Part shown: positions 3,237-10,589 of the stretch, piece after piece
Layout: every line of letters begins with the position of its first letter
Position numbering within the stretch: the stretch's first letter is position 1
Assembly: GCF_034092465.1 (NCBI RefSeq)
Contig: NZ_CP139303.1
Span: 686,865-710,864, forward strand
From: Prochlorococcus sp. MIT 1223
GTDB lineage: Bacteria; Cyanobacteriota; Cyanobacteriia; PCC-6307; Cyanobiaceae
Length of the DNA stretch: 24,000 nucleotides
Direction: 5' to 3'
Notes under the pieces: model-generated
What the model was told of the DNA's origin: nothing
The model's database searches: none
What the model saw: the letters and a program-made list of their open reading frames with translations, nothing else
Made by a program: the position numbers and the translations under genes

Positions 3237-3515
3237 GCTTTTTTCTCTTAGGACTCATTGCAACTGATTTACTCATTTTAGTTAAGTCATTTTTTTCTAC
3301 CAAGACTCAATTTTTACAAGTAACACTTCAGAATGCAGTTCAGGGTTATTGCCACACTTTATAGCGTACTAAAAACTGGAGGGTATATATCACATCATTG
3401 ATAGCATTTAAAACTAATTGAAAATCCTCAAATTTGCTTCTATCTTTGTATCAATAAGGGTGTTTACTTCATTTAAGGGTTAGAATACTATTAACAGTGA
3501 TGGTTTCTAGCACAA

Positions 3516-4097
3516 ATGAATAAAATCATCGGTTACTCAAGAGTTTCTACTGGAGGACAGACCACAGATACCCAAGTTGCTGCTCTTAAAGAGGCAGGAT
3601 GTGAGGTTGTCTTTGAGGAAACCGTAAGCAGTAGAAAAGCAGAGAAAGATAGACCTCAACTTCAGGCAGCACTCACAGCACTTAGATCTGGAGATGAATT
3701 AGTCATAACCAAATTGGACAGGTTGGGAAGGTCTCAGGTTGAGGTTGTTAATCGACTTCACGAATTACAGGCACAAGGAATCAATGTTCGGACTTTGGAT
3801 GGTCTTGTTAATACAGCAGGTCTAGGTCAATTCGCACCAATCCTTATTGGACTCTTGTCTGGTCTTGCTGAGGTTGAAAGATCCCTAATTCAAGAACGCA
3901 CAAGAGAAAGCGTTGAGTTCAGAAGAAAGACAGGAGGAAATCTTGGAGGAAGACCTAAGACAGCACCTAAGAAAGAAAAGTTGGTATTGCGTCTAAGAGA
4001 AGAAGGTGAATCACTCAGGGGTATTAGAGAGCAAACAGGATTAGCAGTTGCAACTATCAGAAAAATCCTTGAGAGGAATAAAGAGGTGGCAGCATGA
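3516..4097 (+). CDS. Small serine site-specific recombinase (resolvase/DNA-invertase family, Hin/Gin-like, 193 aa)
   Basis: N-terminal catalytic motif GYSRVSTGGQ (nucleophile Ser), KLDRLGRS, LAEVERSLIQERT, GGRPK linker and a C-terminal HTH (LRGIREQTGLAVATIRKIL). Collinear with my recollection of Hin/Gin/gamma-delta resolvase. Hand-counted GC is 42-47% on two sampled 60-nt lines, versus 28% on a TPR-gene line. Confidence 0.9.
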   Translation: MNKIIGYSRVSTGGQTTDTQVAALKEAGCEVVFEETVSSRKAEKDRPQLQAALTALRSGDELVITKLDRLGRSQVEVVNRLHELQAQGINVRTLDGLVNTAGLGQFAPILIGLLSGLAEVERSLIQERTRESVEFRRKTGGNLGGRPKTAPKKEKLVLRLREEGESLRGIREQTGLAVATIRKILERNKEVAA

Positions 4098-4267
4098 CAA
4101 AGGTAATGATCGAATGGTTAGATCACCAAAATCGTTGGAGACATTATTCGAGTAGTCATCACGAACCCACTGCATATAAAACTGCACAGACTCGTGCAGA
4201 GAGGACTGGGAAGAGACACAGGATCACTTCTGAAGAAGGGTCTCTGATCGATGTATTTGAACCTTGA
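4094..4267 (+). CDS. Hypothetical 57-aa protein, translationally coupled to the recombinase (not in the ORF track, below its size cutoff)
   Basis: ATGA overlap with the recombinase stop (ATG 4094-4096 / TGA 4095-4097). GAGGTG Shine-Dalgarno-like motif ~6 nt upstream. Translation: MTKVMIEWLDHQNRWRHYSSSHHEPTAYKTAQTRAERTGKRHRITSEEGSLIDVFEP. No family recognised. Confidence 0.4.
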   Translation: MTKVMIEWLDHQNRWRHYSSSHHEPTAYKTAQTRAERTGKRHRITSEEGSLIDVFEP

Positions 4268-4273
4268 TTAGAC

Positions 4274-4465
4274 ATGTTCAAATTCATTCTTCTTGGACTT
4301 CTTTTCTTCAGTCCCTCAGTTGCATCTGCTCATATGTTGACCATTGAGGAGTACTGCGAAGACGTGACTCATAAGAATGTCGATCACACGAATATCTGTT
4401 ATCGGATCGTTTGGAATTATTGGAAAGAGTTCCACCAACACACACATGAAAAACCCCACCTGTGA
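4274..4465 (+). CDS. Hypothetical small secreted His-rich protein (63 aa)
   Basis: Sec-type signal peptide MFKFILLGLLFFSPSVASA|H. The mature part has 8 His and 2 Cys. It competes with an antisense ORF (4316..4507), and its 3' end contains a minus-strand terminator, so coding status is uncertain. Confidence 0.35.
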   Translation: MFKFILLGLLFFSPSVASAHMLTIEEYCEDVTHKNVDHTNICYRIVWNYWKEFHQHTHEKPHL

Positions 4466-4476
4466 AGAAGGTGGGG
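4449..4476 (-). terminator. Rho-independent terminator for the minus-strand micro-operon 5297->4538
   Basis: 8-bp GC-rich stem CCCCACCT (4454-4461) / AGGTGGGG (4469-4476) with a 7-nt loop. On the minus strand it is followed directly by TTTTT (complement of A4449-4453). It lies 62 nt downstream of the 4538 stop. An outer CACATG/CATGTG pairing (4443-4448 / 4477-4482) can extend it. Confidence 0.6.
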
Positions 4477-4537
4477 CATGTGAGTAGTGAGTTTTCTCCT
4501 TAATCAAAGTGATTGTTCAACACCTTGAAGTTCCAAT

Positions 4538-4696
4538 TCAAAACCCCTGCATAGGAGTCCAACCAATTCGAACTTTATTGAGTGTTCCTTCCTCACTTTT
4601 CCTCCAAAGAATCTCCTCGATTTCTTTTTGGAAAAGTTTGACTTCACTCGAGTCGTTGTATTCAACGATTAGTTGAAACTCAGCAAAGTCACTCAT
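4538..4696 (-). CDS. Hypothetical 52-aa protein (not in the ORF track)
   Basis: ATGA overlap with the upstream gene stop (ATG 4696-4694, TGA 4695-4693). GGAGG Shine-Dalgarno 10 nt upstream (complement of 4706-4710). Translation: MSDFAEFQLIVEYNDSSEVKLFQKEIEEILWRKSEEGTLNKVRIGWTPMQGF. Confidence 0.45.
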   Translation of the reverse strand: MSDFAEFQLIVEYNDSSEVKLFQKEIEEILWRKSEEGTLNKVRIGWTPMQGF

Positions 4697-5025
4697 ATGT
4701 TTTCATCCTCCAGTAGTCCTCTCTCTTCATCCACCCCTTCTAAAGATCCCCAAACATATTCATAGGTTGAACCCCAATGAATGCATTTAGTTTTGAGAAT
4801 TCTTTTATAGGGAATAATCGAAGAAATTGCATCTATAAATTCTTCAGTACCTGGATATTCATCAAACCAAAGTCTAACCTCGATCACCTGATTCTCTTCT
4901 TTAAAGGAGGGGGAAGGTAATTCACATAAAACGTGAAACTCTGGTTTAGAAGCAGCACTTTTCAAAATATCTGGATATCCATTATCCAAATAAAGGTCTG
5001 AATCAAATTCTGCACAGTAAGTCAT
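4693..5025 (-). CDS. Hypothetical 110-aa protein; start re-assigned from 5073 to the internal ATG at 5025
   Basis: The ORF-track ORF 4693..5073 overlaps the upstream gene by 52 nt. The internal Met (MTYCAEFDSD...) instead forms an ATGA overlap with the upstream stop (5025-5022) and has a GAGGG motif ~7 nt upstream. No family recognised. Confidence 0.55.
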   Translation of the reverse strand: MTYCAEFDSDLYLDNGYPDILKSAASKPEFHVLCELPSPSFKEENQVIEVRLWFDEYPGTEEFIDAISSIIPYKRILKTKCIHWGSTYEYVWGSLEGVDEERGLLEDENI

Positions 5026-5297
5026 TTGTTTCCCTCTTGAGTTGTTGGATAGAGTTCGTTCATGACAATCCAAAAGGAATCTGTGATGAATCTGACGTGT
5101 TTAGTTTCATAAGGAGTAAGTAGTTCAAAGAACACTCTTATCAATTCACTTTTAACCTTCACTTCCTCTAATTTCTTCTCACGATATTTTTGAATAAAGT
5201 TATAAGGAGATTGATGTTCGTATGTACGAATCCTAATTGGTTTTGGTCTGAGTTTAGGTACAGGTTTAATCTGTACTTGTTGAGTGGTTGTAGTCAT
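5022..5297 (-). CDS. Hypothetical 91-aa basic protein, first gene of a 3-gene coupled micro-operon
   Basis: ORF-track ORF starting MTTTTQQVQIKPVPKLRPKPIRIRTYEH... Its position and coupling to the downstream genes support it; no recognisable domain. Confidence 0.5.
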   Translation of the reverse strand: MTTTTQQVQIKPVPKLRPKPIRIRTYEHQSPYNFIQKYREKKLEEVKVKSELIRVFFELLTPYETKHVRFITDSFWIVMNELYPTTQEGNK

Positions 5298-5694
5298 AAT
5301 AAAAAGTATGGTATACAGTTTCCTGTCTCTTTGAAAGAGGAGTTTAGTGACAGTCAGGCATTGTCAAAAAGAGTAATTAACTAATTAATTTTCTTTACTT
5401 ATATCGCAGATTGAAATTGTTCGATTCATTCCGTTTCGATGAATATAGTATAGCACAGCAGAACAGGATATGGCGCGTATCTTTAGGATTTCTTTAGTAT
5501 TAGATCCCTTTTATATCAAAGGATCTAAAGCAGTATTTCTATTTAATTAGTATTAATATCTAATATACATTAATTGTTAATTGTAATCAACCTATAGGAG
5601 TAATTTTTATCCTGGAAAATATTTTGATATGGATTATTTCTCTCTTTCGATTTTGGTTCGTTGTAGGTTATGCAATTAATCAATTTAAATACAC

Positions 5695-5835
5695 TTAACC
5701 ATTCACATATCTGCGATTAATGTTGTCTATAAAGAACACCTGTATCTCTTTTGGATTGAAAGGGCGTTTATCTCTTCTCATCACTTCCTTGAGTTGTTCT
5801 AGTTGAACCTTGTTCAGTTTGAGGTTGATATTCAT
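5695..5835 (-). CDS. Hypothetical 46-aa protein (not in the ORF track)
   Basis: ATGA overlap with the stop of 5832..6023 (ATG 5835-5833 / TGA 5834-5832). Translation: MNINLKLNKVQLEQLKEVMRRDKRPFNPKEIQVFFIDNINRRYVNG. No obvious Shine-Dalgarno. Confidence 0.3.
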   Translation of the reverse strand: MNINLKLNKVQLEQLKEVMRRDKRPFNPKEIQVFFIDNINRRYVNG

Positions 5836-6023
5836 TTGGATGGAAACAGCAGTTGGTGACGTTCTGATCGGAGAGTCTTATACATCTGACTTTTATTCCA
5901 TCCGTAATGCCGCATTAGTGCCAACTCCTCTCTCTTTGTTCTCTCTTCTTCCCACTCGTGATAGGAGATCGTGGTCTTCCTTCTGGTTCCTTTAGTCCAC
6001 TTGGGTTGTGTATTGGTCTTCAT
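5832..6023 (-). CDS. Hypothetical 63-aa basic protein, possible stand-alone Hin/resolvase-C-terminal-like HTH DNA-binding protein
   Basis: The segment KGTRRKTTISYHEWEEERTKREELALMRHYGWNKSQMYKTL follows the pattern of serine-recombinase C-terminal domains. Basic G-x-R-x-K linker, then helix, then G-x-x-x-S-x-[LM]-Y-[KR]-x-[LF]; compare Hin ...GIGVSTLYRYF, from memory. By-eye resemblance only. Confidence 0.4.
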   Translation of the reverse strand: MKTNTQPKWTKGTRRKTTISYHEWEEERTKREELALMRHYGWNKSQMYKTLRSERHQLLFPSK

Positions 6024-6142
6024 GGGTTTACTTACTTTGTAGGGGCGTCAAGAGGTCTCTGGCGATCCTTTCTTGAGAGGATGCAGTCTGAGATACATCA
6101 CTCAACTACATTTCTAAATGTATTTATAATCATTTTTCTCCC

Positions 6143-6169
6143 CTAAAGTTACTCTAAAGCACCTCTAAG
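6143..6169. repeat. Three 11-bp-phased copies of CTAAAG/CTAAAG/CTAAG
   Basis: Copies start at 6143, 6154 and 6165 (cCTAAAGttact CTAAAGcacct CTAAGtaatcc). Confidence 0.6.
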
Positions 6170-6340
6170 TAATCCTTCAAAGGTTCTAATGGGGTTCCGA
6201 AAACCGACAGAGTTATTTATACAGTTACGTACAAATTATGGTCACTAGTTAATAATTATTTACAAAGAGTTTTGCTCTTCAGTTTAACTTAGCAATCAAG
6301 TCTTTAGGCACCTGTTATAGGAAATGATTACCCAAGTAAA

Positions 6341-6383
6341 ACCCGAACACATTTGCAAAAAACCCGAACACAACCCGAACACA
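6341..6383. repeat. Three exact copies of the 11-mer ACCCGAACACA (spacing 21 and 11 bp)
   Basis: Exact copies at 6341-6351, 6362-6372 and 6373-6383. The last two are directly tandem. The first two are each preceded by an A-run. Confidence 0.85.
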
Positions 6384-6504
6384 AATATTCCGAAGTTGAA
6401 CTATCCTGAATGCTTCGGGATAGTTCTTGTCTCTAAAACGTCTGTCATAGACCCATCTCGGGTCACTATAACTACTCAGGAGTAATCCTGATCAGTTAAA
6501 AATA

Positions 6505-6589
6505 CGGAGAGGGTGGGATTCGAACCCACGAACAGTTTCCTGTTAAACGATTTCGAGTCGTTCGCTTTCGACCACTCAGCCACCTCTCC
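6505..6589 (-). tRNA. tRNA-Ser (anticodon CGA), 85 nt, class II long variable arm, CCA not encoded
   Basis: The reverse complement folds by hand. Acceptor GGAGAGG/CCTCTCC plus discriminator G. Anticodon stem AACGA/TCGTT with loop CT-CGA-AA. Variable arm ACAG-GAAA-CTGT. T arm GTGGG-TTCGAAT-CCCAC. Confidence 0.9.
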
Positions 6590-6659
6590 TTAGCCTTAGC
6601 CTTAGCTAAGAGTAATTATTATTAATTGAAATTTCAAAAATATATTTTTTTCCTGAAGC

Positions 6660-7688
6660 TTAATCCCAAGAAGCCTCTGCCATAAGCTTTATAGCTTTCT
6701 TATTATTTTCACCTAATTGATTAATCGTTACTTTATCTGGGATCACAGCTCCAAACCTTTTAACTTCCTTAGAGTCATTGAACCCAATTAAGGGATGTTC
6801 ATAAGTAGGAAAAGCTAAACCTTTACTACCTTTAGGTGAAGCTAAAAATTCCAGTAGTTTAATAGCTTCTTCTTTATTCTCAGCATATTTAGCAATACCT
6901 CCAGCACTTACATTTACATGAGCTGGGTTAGGGGTAATTACTTTAACTCTGCTCGCTAATCTTCTATCTTTAAGACCATTAACTCCACCAAGCATTCTTG
7001 CTACATAATAATGATTCACTATTCCTATTCCACATTTATTTTGTGCAACTGCTCTAATTACTCCAATATCACCAGGGAAATAAGGTTGAGAAACGTTTGA
7101 GATCATACCTTTTAACCATTTTTTCGTCTCTTCTTCACCTCTTATAACCAGTTGATTAGCAACTAAAGATTGATTATATGGACTATTCCGCTTTCTCAAG
7201 CAAACTTTTCCTTGCAAAGATGGATCAGCAAGATCCGAATAATCTTTTATTTTTGAAATATCAACTGACTTAGGGTTTGCAACCATAACTCTTACTCTTC
7301 TCGTTAGCGCATACCACTTGCCATTAGGGTCTTTATATTGACTAGGAACAGCTTTGTCTAACTTGGCAGAACGATAGCTCTGCAATAAGCCTTCCTTCGC
7401 AGCATTGCTGATTCGAGCAGCATCGACAAGCAAGATAACATCAGCTTTCGAGTTAGCGCCTTCTCTCTTCAATCTTTCTACAAGTGATATACCAGTTGCT
7501 TCAATTAATCGAACTTTAATACCTGTATCAGCTGCAAATTTTTTATATATTTGTCGGTCTGTATTGTAATGCCGACCAGAATAAACTCGAACTTCGCTAG
7601 CAATAGACCTGCTAGAAAAAATTAGTCCTGAACCCATAGCAAAAGAAGTTGCAATAACTGAAGAGGCAAAACGTTGAAATAAAGGCAT
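6660..7688 (-). CDS. futA: Fe(3+) ABC transporter periplasmic substrate-binding protein (FutA/IdiA/AfuA family)
   Basis: 342 aa with a signal peptide. VYSGRHYNTDRQIYKKFAADTGIKV...ADVILLVDAARI is typical of cyanobacterial FutA/IdiA iron-binding proteins. Confidence 0.88.
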   Translation of the reverse strand: MPLFQRFASSVIATSFAMGSGLIFSSRSIASEVRVYSGRHYNTDRQIYKKFAADTGIKVRLIEATGISLVERLKREGANSKADVILLVDAARISNAAKEGLLQSYRSAKLDKAVPSQYKDPNGKWYALTRRVRVMVANPKSVDISKIKDYSDLADPSLQGKVCLRKRNSPYNQSLVANQLVIRGEEETKKWLKGMISNVSQPYFPGDIGVIRAVAQNKCGIGIVNHYYVARMLGGVNGLKDRRLASRVKVITPNPAHVNVSAGGIAKYAENKEEAIKLLEFLASPKGSKGLAFPTYEHPLIGFNDSKEVKRFGAVIPDKVTINQLGENNKKAIKLMAEASWD

Positions 7689-8927: not shown

Positions 8928-10442
8928 TTAGAACTTTAAAGTTGTCAAAACTACATAACCATTTGCATCGTCGTTAGTTCCAGTGTTTGGATCTGAACTT
9001 CCGAAGAAAGCAGGAGTAACTGACACATTGTCATTAACTTGGAATGTGTAGTAAGCCTCCCATGTGCTGTTGTCCTTAGCACCCTCTGATTGAGCAGTTG
9101 CTGTCTCATCAAGAGTCGCATGGTAAGTGTTAGCGGTCATTCTTGAACCGATAGCAAAACCAGCTTTGTTACCTTCAGAACCTACGTCATCCCACATTAG
9201 GCCGATCATCCAGCCGTCAGCTTCCTTAACGTTGACGTCGTTGTTGTCGATAGTAGTTGTGTCATACCCAATCTGAATAGCTGGGATAGCACCTACTTCT
9301 TCAGGCTTCCAGTAAGCTCTTAAACCGTAAGCTGTTTCATGAGCATGAGTAGCTCTTTCTGCAGCTTGATTTGTTGCGAAGTAAGTATCTGTCCAACCAC
9401 CACTCTTATAAGCAGTAGCTAGAGATACCTGCCATCTTGGAGAACCATACTCAAACTTGACAAGAGTTCCTCTCTTACCTGTTTCACCAAATATTCCGCT
9501 GTCAACAGCTGCAGACTCACCACTCTGTTGAGTATAAGCAAGAGATACAGCGAAGCGTGCAGCAGATGGATCATCCTTTTGCTGAGTCCAGGCAACACCT
9601 AAACCAGGGTTAGTGCTTGAACCGTAAACAGGACCATTACCACCAAGTGCGAATTGCTTCATCACTGGCTTATAAATAGATGGAGAGCTAGCTAGCATGT
9701 AGTAGTTCTCAACCTTTGGACCAATCCAAACTTTGAACTGTTCAGCAACTGGGAATGAATACCATAGCTTGTCTACCTTTAAGTAGTCATAAGCGGTAGC
9801 ACTGCTACCACCTGCCTCGGCAGAACCTGCACCATGAGCAGATAGGTATGTAGCAGATGTTCTGGTGCCGAAATGACCTTGAACGTTACCAGTCTTGATG
9901 CGAACATAAAGATTGTCTCTACCAGAGAAGCTGGAGTTCAAGTTCATCTGATAGCTGTACTCCATAGTTGTGGAGTCAGATGTATCAGCATCACTATCAA
10001 CCTGACCAACGATGATGTTGGCCTTACCGTCTAGCTTTGTTGTATTAGAGAATTGACCGGCTTCGAATTCGCCAACGCGAGCTTCAAGACCATCAATTCT
10101 ACCTTTGATTACAGCAAGCTCAGGAGCGAACTCATTGATAAGACGACGCTCTTCCTCGTTAACCTGAGCAACATTGCCAAGGCACTTGTTTAACAAAGAA
10201 GCAGCTTCGTAACGAGTGATGCTTCCAGAAGGATTAGCAACAGCACATCCGTGGCGCTCAGCCAAAGAAGTTAGAGCTTGATAAGCCCAATCTGTTGGAT
10301 AAACATCAGAGAAGCTCTGAACTTCTGAACCAGAAGTGTAGTCAGAGATTCCATCAATGTTTAAATCAGCAGCGTTTGCTGCCAATGGTGCCATTAGGCC
10401 CAATGCAGCAGGAGCTACCAGCAATTGCTGGAAAAGTTTCAT
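8928..10442 (-). CDS. som: Outer-membrane porin, N-terminal SLH domain plus OprB-like beta-barrel (Som family)
   Basis: 504 aa. Signal peptide MKLFQQLLVAPAALGLMAPLAANA, SLH motif DVYPTDWAYQALTSLAERHGC, coiled-coil linker, Gly/Tyr-rich beta-barrel ending in F. Typical picocyanobacterial Som porin. Confidence 0.88.
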   Translation of the reverse strand: MKLFQQLLVAPAALGLMAPLAANAADLNIDGISDYTSGSEVQSFSDVYPTDWAYQALTSLAERHGCAVANPSGSITRYEAASLLNKCLGNVAQVNEEERRLINEFAPELAVIKGRIDGLEARVGEFEAGQFSNTTKLDGKANIIVGQVDSDADTSDSTTMEYSYQMNLNSSFSGRDNLYVRIKTGNVQGHFGTRTSATYLSAHGAGSAEAGGSSATAYDYLKVDKLWYSFPVAEQFKVWIGPKVENYYMLASSPSIYKPVMKQFALGGNGPVYGSSTNPGLGVAWTQQKDDPSAARFAVSLAYTQQSGESAAVDSGIFGETGKRGTLVKFEYGSPRWQVSLATAYKSGGWTDTYFATNQAAERATHAHETAYGLRAYWKPEEVGAIPAIQIGYDTTTIDNNDVNVKEADGWMIGLMWDDVGSEGNKAGFAIGSRMTANTYHATLDETATAQSEGAKDNSTWEAYYTFQVNDNVSVTPAFFGSSDPNTGTNDDANGYVVLTTLKF

Positions 10443-10447
10443 TTAAT

Positions 10448-10456
10448 TCCTCACAC
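10448..10456 (-). promoter_or_regulatory. Putative Yfr1 sRNA target site overlapping the som ribosome-binding site
   Basis: The mRNA-sense 5'UTR reads ...UUCUGUGUGAGGAAUUAA-AUG. GUGUGAGGA is complementary to the conserved Yfr1 motif ACUCCUCACAC, which is recalled from the literature. Confidence 0.5.
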
Positions 10457-10483
10457 AGAAATACCCAAAACTTGGGCTCGCAC

Positions 10484-10489
10484 ATTATA
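10484..10489 (-). promoter_or_regulatory. Candidate -10 box (perfect TATAAT) for the som porin
   Basis: On the minus strand, ...GATTAGCATCTATAATGTGCGAG... lies ~40 nt upstream of the ATG. No convincing -35 element. Confidence 0.45.
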
Positions 10490-10525
10490 GATGCTAATCA
10501 AGCTAAACACCAGTAAAAACCAATT

Positions 10526-10589
10526 AATTACTTCCACCTATGCATCGAATGTAACAATTCTCACATTCGATGCATAGGTGGAAGTAATT
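10526..10589 (-). terminator. 27-bp perfect inverted repeat (10-nt loop); probable glyQ terminator or insulator upstream of the som promoter
   Basis: AATTACTTCCACCTATGCATCGAATGT (10526-10552) pairs base-for-base with 10563-10589; all 27 pairs checked by hand. It lies 47 nt after the glyQ stop. On the minus strand it is followed by AATTGGTTTTTAC. Confidence 0.6.

Follow-up and report, generated by a model that had tools for sequence, protein, structure and literature searches.

Arm-type sites belong to the textbook picture of heterobivalent tyrosine integrases, and those on the attP of phage lambda (P1, P2 and P'1-P'3) are bound by the N-terminal domain of lambda Int. The role of integrase arm sites is summarized in PMC2951348, which also covers the KplE1 IntS/TorI system at the tRNA argW of E. 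coli; in Prochlorococcus, tycheposons and 'cryptic' elements form islands beside tRNA genes, with seven targets listed for tycheposons (Pro-tgg, Ser-tga, Ala-ggc, Thr-ggt, Arg-tct, Met-cat and tmRNA; Hackl et al., 10.1101/2020.12.28.424599). Here we describe three exact copies of the 11-mer ACCCGAACACA that lie beside a tRNA-Ser(CGA) gene of Prochlorococcus sp. MIT 1223, within a stretch of 24,000 nucleotides (contig NZ_CP139303.1, positions 686,865-710,864; hereafter the window). With a probability of roughly 85%, these copies are P-arm arm-type sites of a lambda/P4-type heterobivalent tyrosine integrase, belonging to a tRNA-Ser-targeting, tycheposon-like or 'cryptic' Prochlorococcus-type element.

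The putative arm-type sites occupy positions 6341-6351, 6362-6372 and 6373-6383 of the plus strand, at spacings of 21 and 11 bp and with the second and third abutting, and all are direct repeats. The window holds no other exact copy on either strand, the remaining matches being far off and requiring two mismatches; because a single 11-mer of this composition is expected only about 0.005 times per window (from base composition), three copies within 43 bp are not a product of chance, in agreement with a preliminary description of this locus that had reported the same positions and spacing. The array belongs to a 481-bp stretch (6024-6504) of a low-GC region (about 32-38% guanine plus cytosine around the repeats), bounded by an open reading frame (ORF) of 63 aa (5832-6023, minus strand) and by the tRNA-Ser(CGA) gene (6505-6589, minus strand; ARAGORN, and 63 bits against the Rfam tRNA model). 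That this stretch is non-coding, as had also been proposed, holds: its sole ORF (6324-6485, 53 aa) is not maintained as an open frame across homologous arms. The 3' terminus of this tRNA gene, the presumed integration target and attB half of an attR, faces the repeats from a distance of 121 bp, and its last 11 nt plus one further nucleotide make up the putative core or identity segment ACGGAGAGGGTG (6504-6515, plus strand). Direct reading of the sequence reveals no similarity between ACCCGAACACA and the core, ACGGAGAGGGTG(TCCGT).

A scan for two copies of ACCCGAACACA across 185,579 genomes, one per species, returned 50 matches, the sole relevant one being an attL of Prochlorococcus sp. AG-363-N20 (locus L059, on the same contig as L062/L063) that carries ACCCGAACACA on its P' arm; the motif is therefore not a dispersed genomic repeat, a possibility that had been raised as well. 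Starting with a 12-nt copy of the tRNA-Ser 3' end (ACGGAGAGGGTG), L059 continues with two abutting ACCCGAACACA units at +83/+94 (positions in att arms are counted from the C of the core CGGAG), a promoter, xis, int and cargo that includes tetratricopeptide-repeat (TPR) proteins. Homologues of the L059 integrase were traced to their contigs, and eight motif families were compared. In L064-66 and L073, whose integrase is 74% identical to that of L059, both arms stand on one sequence in the order three TCCAGAACACA copies (-164/-143/-132), a homologue of window 6384-6504, the core, a homologue of the L059 arm, two TCCAGAACACA copies (+83/+94), xis and int. Window 6339-6515 is 76% identical to the corresponding part of L064-66.

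The same layout recurs with other motifs. Sites 1, 2 and 3 of the window lie 164, 143 and 132 bp from the core, and their counterparts are found at -164 to -167 (L064, L077, L081 and L088), -143 to -145 and -132 to -134, respectively, in other families. The ACCCGAACACA family thus has the window's P arm (-164/-143/-132) and the P' arm of L059/L062 (+83/+94), and L064-66 and L073 have TCCAGAACACA at identical positions on both sides; ACCAGAACACA stands at -165/-143/-132 in L088, beside a full tRNA-Ser(CGA), and at +82/+94 in L067-69. L077/78, a tandem of two non-identical elements, carries TCCCCATCACA at -166/-144/-133 and +83/+94, and L081-85 carry CC[CA]TAAGACA at -165/-143/-132 and +84/+95; for ATCACAGAGAC in L090 the P' copies are at +81/+92 and the P arm was not captured. 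Two complete elements complete the set: a 6.1-kb one at the tRNA-Ser(TGA) of Prochlorococcus MIT 0604 (L074), with four TCCCAAACACA copies on the P arm (-200/-187/-165/-154) and two on the P' arm (+83/+94), and a 9.85-kb one at tRNA-Ser(GCT) (L089), with three TTCCTCCCCTA-type copies spaced by 22 and 12 on the P arm and two on the P' arm. An unsupervised search for local repeats recovered this 3(4)+2 layout in every intact arm.

The 11-mer varies between families and matches across the two arms of one element, as seen on single contiguous sequences in L064-66/L073, L077, L081, L074 and L089. Families that differ in motif have integrases of 36-74% identity, and the flanks of the arms remain homologous across families while the motif columns change in blocks (alignments A3 and A4); at the junctions of homologous elements, where the preliminary description had called for conservation to be checked, the repeats are accordingly conserved in position, not in sequence. 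In L064-66, L073 and L077 the 12-mer ACGGAGAGGGTG separates the P arm from the P' arm, in L059/L062, L067-69, L081-85 and L090 it is found at attL, and the core at the tRNA-Ser(TGA) of L074 differs from it by one base (ACGGAGGGGGTG). L074 and L089 each have a full tRNA on one side and a partial copy of that tRNA's 3' end on the other; the tRNA genes targeted are tRNA-Ser(CGA) in the window and L088, tRNA-Ser(GCT) in L089 (19315-19405) and tRNA-Ser(TGA) in L074. A tyrosine integrase is encoded in all related loci.

Could the 11-mers instead serve primarily as operators or activator sites, for the xis-int promoter or for the 63-aa gene, with the recombination geometry being secondary? The P' arm does contain a near-consensus xis-int promoter (TTGACT-17-TATAAT in L059) whose -35 and -10 elements are conserved across arms, and the P' copies are located about 59 bp upstream of this TTGAC-17-TATAAT unit; in KplE1, moreover, the int promoter is repressed from Int arm sites and TorI sites that overlap it (PMC2951348). 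On the P side, however, no sigma-70 promoter or promoter-like site was found at the tool's threshold in 5800-6620, and the ACCCGAACACA copies of the window are about 320 bp from the start of the 63-aa gene, in a different module. P-arm copies hold their distance to the core and not to any gene, the neighboring gene being a different one in L064, L077, L081 and the window. A primarily regulatory role is thus very unlikely, although regulation would be compatible with arm-site function and does not exclude it. Two further readings of the P arm find no footing either, since no frame is open across the homologous arms, and RNAalifold applied to seven P arms detects no structure where the repeats lie and counts 0 compensatory pairs. 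Direct repetition, a fixed distance to the core and the non-coding, unstructured nature of the arm together argue against serine-recombinase sites, operators of neighboring genes, a peptide or an RNA.

The proteins encoded by the relatives fit an arm-binding integrase. L059 encodes a tyrosine integrase of 431 aa, preceded by a 73-aa excisionase (Xis) of the AlpA/HTH_17 type, and the gene directly before int in these elements codes for an AlpA/HTH_17 protein of 66-73 aa. The integrases carry Phage_integrase plus Phage_int_M, with Arm-DNA-bind_3 (PF13356) matching in 12 of the 55 aligned family members (best E value 6e-11). An AlphaFold model of the L059 integrase (predicted local distance difference test score, pLDDT, 89.8) has an N-terminal domain of beta-sheet plus helix (residues 1-91) and a disordered linker (102-107); its best Foldseek matches are full-length lambda Int structures (1z1b, 5j0n and 1z1g), over about 410 columns, and lambda Int is also the first match of the sequence profile.

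The excisionase itself is the other obvious candidate for a reader of the 11-mers, as it is encoded directly upstream of int and phased direct repeats in att arms are common targets of directionality factors, such as the TorI sites of KplE1 (PMC2951348). Its helix-turn-helix (GVSRSTITRxEKxN), however, is nearly identical in L062, L064 and L077, the 11-mers of which differ at 2-5 of 11 positions; an almost invariant recognition region paired with divergent sites makes Xis an unlikely reader. The presence of the 11-mers on both arms at fixed distances points the same way, and a better candidate for Xis lies between the core and the 11-mers, in the form of a more conserved pair of TGAAC/CTGAAC motifs. 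We accordingly regard the excisionase as highly improbable as the ligand. In the window this pair consists of TGAAC (6397-6401) and TGAAT (6407-6411), 10 bp apart on the plus strand; TGAAC...CTGAA is conserved across P arms (alignment A3), and similar CTGAAC pairs occupy the P' arms between the core and the arm sites. These pairs (window 6397-6411) are candidate accessory sites for Xis or a host factor. The core-proximal block CCTGATCAGTT (6487-6497, plus strand), in which C, T, A, T and T do not vary across seven P arms from five motif families, may likewise be a protein site close to the core. A hairpin with a 13-bp stem (GAACTATCC...GGATAGTTC, 6398-6426), flagged as terminator-like, overlaps the TGAAC pair; it has a z-score of -2.0, and its stem is not conserved in homologous arms.

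In the arrangement that we propose, the window holds an attR, made up of a P arm (about 6266-6504) joined to the crossover core ACGGAGAGGGTG; the latter would rebuild the 3' end of tRNA-Ser(CGA). By analogy with lambda Int and KplE1 IntS (PMC2951348), the N-terminal domain of the integrase would bind the phased 11-mers of the P arm together with the two copies at +83/+94 on the P' arm, its C-terminal domains would bind the core, and the protein would in this way bridge attR with attL, the bent DNA constituting an intasome for integration; with an AlpA-type Xis bending the arm, the same intasome would carry out excision. The 11-mer would serve as a code particular to each family, changing in step with the integrase. 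Whereas position, copy number, phasing, concerted variation of the two arms and the domain architecture of the integrases of relatives are direct observations, we infer the binding itself and the division of the sites between integration and excision. The cognate integrase gene would lie beyond the left edge of the window, in an order like that of L059 (attL, xis, int, cargo, TPR genes), or would have been lost. Because L059 carries precisely the same motif and has TPR-type cargo in common with the window, the int end is likely to be situated beyond that edge, toward which a TPR-rich giant ORF (more than 1,084 aa, minus strand) runs from 3254 to beyond position 1. TPR proteins also recur as cargo beside the att arms of L059, L067 and L077.

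Several points weigh against this assignment. The 24-kb window contains neither a tyrosine integrase nor xis, a small serine recombinase of 193 aa being its sole site-specific recombinase, and it lacks both a second core and any partial repeat of the tRNA 3' end; for this reason the cognate protein is deduced from relatives, and the array of the window could be an orphan arm. In the closest integrases, P0001 (of the ACCCGAACACA-type element) and P0002 (TCCAGAACACA), Arm-DNA-bind_3 stays below the Pfam threshold, the domain being matched in more distant members and weakly in P0007 (TCCCCATCACA). The four rather than three P-arm copies of MIT 0604 (L074), at shifted positions, indicate that the geometry is not absolutely fixed. 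Finally, Xis, the serine recombinase and other proteins of these elements also diverge between families, so that covariation alone is no proof that Int reads the motif.

Compared with lambda, the elements share five short sites that are distinct from the core and distributed over both arms of attP, a distance of about one helical turn between adjacent sites, a three-domain integrase and an xis gene beside int. They differ in having 3 + 2 instead of 2 + 3 sites, in the unrelated 11-mer, in the orientation of all five copies on the same strand, and in their target, the 3' end of a tRNA-Ser with an identity segment of ~12 bp. KplE1 offers a second parallel (PMC2951348), with integration at a tRNA 3' end, int beside attL, P' arm-type and directionality-factor sites in the int promoter region and a small AlpA/TorI-like helix-turn-helix excisionase; unlike in KplE1, the P' sites are about 59 bp upstream of the -35 of the xis-int operon promoter and do not overlap it, the host is a cyanobacterium, and the elements are cargo carriers of 4.7-10 kb and not prophages.

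Tycheposons and 'cryptic' elements (10.1101/2020.12.28.424599) resemble the present ones in forming a Prochlorococcus-type island beside a tRNA gene, in the tyrosine recombinase plus excisionase encoded by the relatives, in the small serine recombinase, which that preprint lists as a recurrent gene, and in the tandem elements separated by partial tRNA copies (L077, L069 and L080); the MIT 0604 relative (L074), at tRNA-Ser(TGA), occupies one of the seven listed targets. In MIT 0604, the same preprint reports, tycheposon genes were induced by mitomycin C. Ser(CGA), used in the window and L088, and Ser(GCT), used in L089, are outside those seven, and, in contrast to the tycheposon definition, neither a tyrosine nor a large serine recombinase is encoded within the window. 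Since the terms 'arm', 'attP' and 'binding site' do not occur in the text of the preprint (10.1101/2020.12.28.424599), the arm-site architecture and its family codes are not described there, and no paper in the library that was searched joins tycheposons with arm-type sites. The feature is therefore of a known kind and newly documented for these little-studied elements, the added value consisting of eight matched arm-motif/integrase families with conserved geometry.

The two proteins that the preliminary description had favored as ligands are encoded in the window. The first, the 193-aa serine recombinase of the DNA-invertase type (3516-4097, plus strand; Pfam Resolvase 3e-33 plus HTH_7, and PHROG 125 DNA invertase 3e-50), belongs to a gene family found in L064, L074, L077, L079-84, L089 and L090, and is thus a recurrent passenger of these elements; the second, the 63-aa protein, is the product of the gene closest to the ACCCGAACACA array. 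It is extremely improbable that the 11-mers are sites for either, whether as res/hix-like accessory sites of the recombinase or otherwise. Serine recombinases act at half-sites that form inverted repeats on either side of a 2-bp crossover. All ACCCGAACACA copies are direct, by contrast, and the architecture corresponds to that of a heterobivalent tyrosine integrase. The recombinase gene, moreover, moves as a module of its own with different flanks (L001 and L002), and it is not seen in the available parts of L059/L062 and L067, loci that may be incomplete elements. The 63-aa protein, previously called 'HTH-like', has no Pfam or PHROGs match, to a helix-turn-helix or otherwise, and its module is joined in L088 to a P arm with a different 11-mer despite an identity of 98-100%. 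Both an exact look-up and a homologue search recovered its own cluster alone, and the sequence is 86% identical at the amino acid level in L064/L065.

Alignments of the recombinase gene gave further observations. Together with ~150-180 bp of upstream sequence (3337-4101), it is 91-94% identical at the DNA level in two short marine metagenome contigs, L001 and L002, and the encoded protein is identical in all three; beyond about 3337/3371 on one side and the stop codon (about 4097-4101) on the other, homology is lost and the flanks differ. The gene acts like a self-contained module. Relative to the tRNA its orientation varies, being plus in the window, L064 and L077 and minus in L074 and L089.

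The preliminary description had treated the ACCCGAACACA copies together with a second array about 200 bp away, CTAAAG/CTAAAG/CTAAG, which lies on the plus strand at 6143-6170 in the upstream region of the 63-aa gene, outside the att arm. Comparison with the metagenome contig L088 separates the two. L088 is 98-100% identical to window 5797-6265, including all three CTAAAG units, and past 6265 its identity drops abruptly to 37% before recovering to 55-65% across the arm, where it carries a different P arm with ACCAGAACACA-type sites beside tRNA-Ser(CGA); there is therefore a module junction after about 6265 between the arrays, at which the putative P-arm module (6266-6504, plus strand) begins. 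By these alignments the CTAAAG array moves together with the 63-aa gene, as the ACCCGAACACA array does with the att arm.

As reported earlier, the CTAAAG units start at 6143, 6154 and 6165 with a strict 11-bp period, and the array is real; its significance is marginal, and it is a separate and much weaker feature than the ACCCGAACACA array. That it functions in protein binding, for instance as an operator or as -35-proximal sites for a minus-strand promoter of the 63-aa/46-aa operon (5695-6023), strikes us as rather unlikely. Only CTAA, four bases, is in register in all three units, an equally loose pattern arises window-wide in about 8.5% of Markov-simulated windows, and CTAAAG is a common hexamer with 25 occurrences in the window; a triple in-phase CTAA within a given 481 bp, on the other hand, has a P of about 0.005. 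The array is conserved with its surroundings (6082-6221) and the 63-aa gene in L064-66, L087 and L088, all three units being identical in L087 and L088. L064-66 have two units, and the difference from the window is exactly one unit of 11 bp, which preserves the phase; an indel of this kind fits either a variable number of binding sites or simple replication slippage. No consensus promoter was detected near the array, and DNA binding by the 63-aa protein is not suggested by Pfam or PHROGs.

Iterons had been named in the preliminary description as well, next to arm sites and operators; for ACCCGAACACA, the geometry across families strongly supports the second of these readings and disfavors the other two. 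Iterons are roughly 17-22-bp direct repeats beside a rep gene or an AT-rich unwinding element. The ACCCGAACACA repeats resemble those of plasmids and phages in being direct and phased by about one helical turn, and tycheposons often carry replication genes (10.1101/2020.12.28.424599). The units nevertheless measure 11 bp, number just 3+2, with three in the window, and are split symmetrically around the recombination core at fixed distances; no initiator gene is nearby, the element of the window has no rep gene in Pfam or PHROGs, and neither does the minimal 4.7-kb element L065 have a Pfam-recognizable replication gene. A replication origin of the element is thus hardly credible as the role of the array. 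L065 (4793 bp) has an exact terminal overlap of 55 bp, which corresponds to a circular or tandemly repeated minimal element of 4,738 bp with the order xis, int, resolvase, 71-aa ORF, 46/63-aa ORFs, 350-aa ORF, attP; besides the first three genes it holds four ORFs without an assigned function, including that of 350 aa.

Searches for the arm components in other collections gave few matches. Neither integrase relatives nor the conserved P-arm block GGGTCACTATRACTACTCAGGA were found in viral contigs, and GGGTCACTATRACTACTCAGGA occurs in one metagenome contig, L073, which is identical in type to L064. The genome matches of the two-copy scan other than L059, all from outside Prochlorococcus and mostly from high-GC taxa, were put down to chance or to tandem repeats of an unrelated kind, on the basis of L044 and L047. 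Among viral-contig matches to ACCCGAACACA, L003-8 and L010 contain 33-bp repeats within a repeat-rich stretch that reads as coding (unannotated), and L011 has a different repeat system. In L009, a contig of an unrelated phage with 32% GC, 7.5 tandem units of 17 bp (5242-5369) contain the 11-mer (ACCCGAACACATGAAGC) directly upstream of the genes for the small and large terminase subunits (TerS/TerL), with further 13-bp arrays close by; this array may be a packaging or replication signal, and the 11-mer that it has in common with the window was judged coincidental.

The remainder of the window adds the following context. Several small ORFs without a family match in Pfam and PHROGs scans, including the 46-aa/63-aa pair, fill 4097-6023 on both strands, and a gene for a periplasmic solute-binding protein (6660-7688, minus strand) follows beyond the tRNA, which is the only hit of an Rfam scan of the whole window (sub-threshold matches are tRNA look-alikes). 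A (TTAGCC)x3 microsatellite (6590-6607) lies immediately 5' of the tRNA-Ser gene. Farther away, the 9000-10500 region has a GC content of 45% against a background of roughly 32% and holds a 504-aa ORF (8928-10442, minus strand), and an intergenic, near-perfect palindrome of 64 bp (10526-10589) has 32-nt arms that are 94% complementary and no spacer.

Other loci of the family show elements side by side. To the left of the attL cores of L062 (about 170-200), L069 (about 660-690) and L080 (about 500-700) lie P arms of other elements with different motifs, namely TTTCCC(C)TAAC, CCGCCAACACA and TCTCCCAACA/CTGACAC; from the sequence, these are heterologous tandem stacks at one tRNA site. In L067 (9369-9520), two core copies 139 bp apart enclose a mini-remnant full of (T/G)GGCAC repeats, which looks like a fully decayed element with fused arms and yet another arm motif.

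We tentatively consider, as a doubtful though possible extension, that the 11-mers act as private 'arm codes' for elements competing for an identical or almost identical ~12-bp core at tRNA-Ser, making the elements mutually orthogonal. If so, each integrase would assemble an intasome on its own arms alone, heterologous stacks such as those of L062, L069 and L080 would be individually excisable, and mobilization in trans of orphan arms like that of the window would require an incoming element whose code matches; the pairing of Int N-domain variants with at least eight DNA motifs would then amount to a natural, readable specificity code.

In summary, the reading of the ACCCGAACACA copies as integrase arm-type sites would explain the repeats beside the tRNA gene and define the att architecture of island-building Prochlorococcus elements, comprising a core, 3+2 arm sites, candidate accessory sites and a xis-int promoter. 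It would also correct the annotation of the locus, in which the small serine recombinase and the 63-aa ORF appear as passengers and not as proteins acting on the repeats, and would allow the ends of elements to be located in fragmentary marine data, including contigs that do not reach the integrase. The eight motif/integrase pairs constitute a data set on how P4-type arm-binding domains read DNA and make it possible to ask whether arm codes keep co-resident elements independent.

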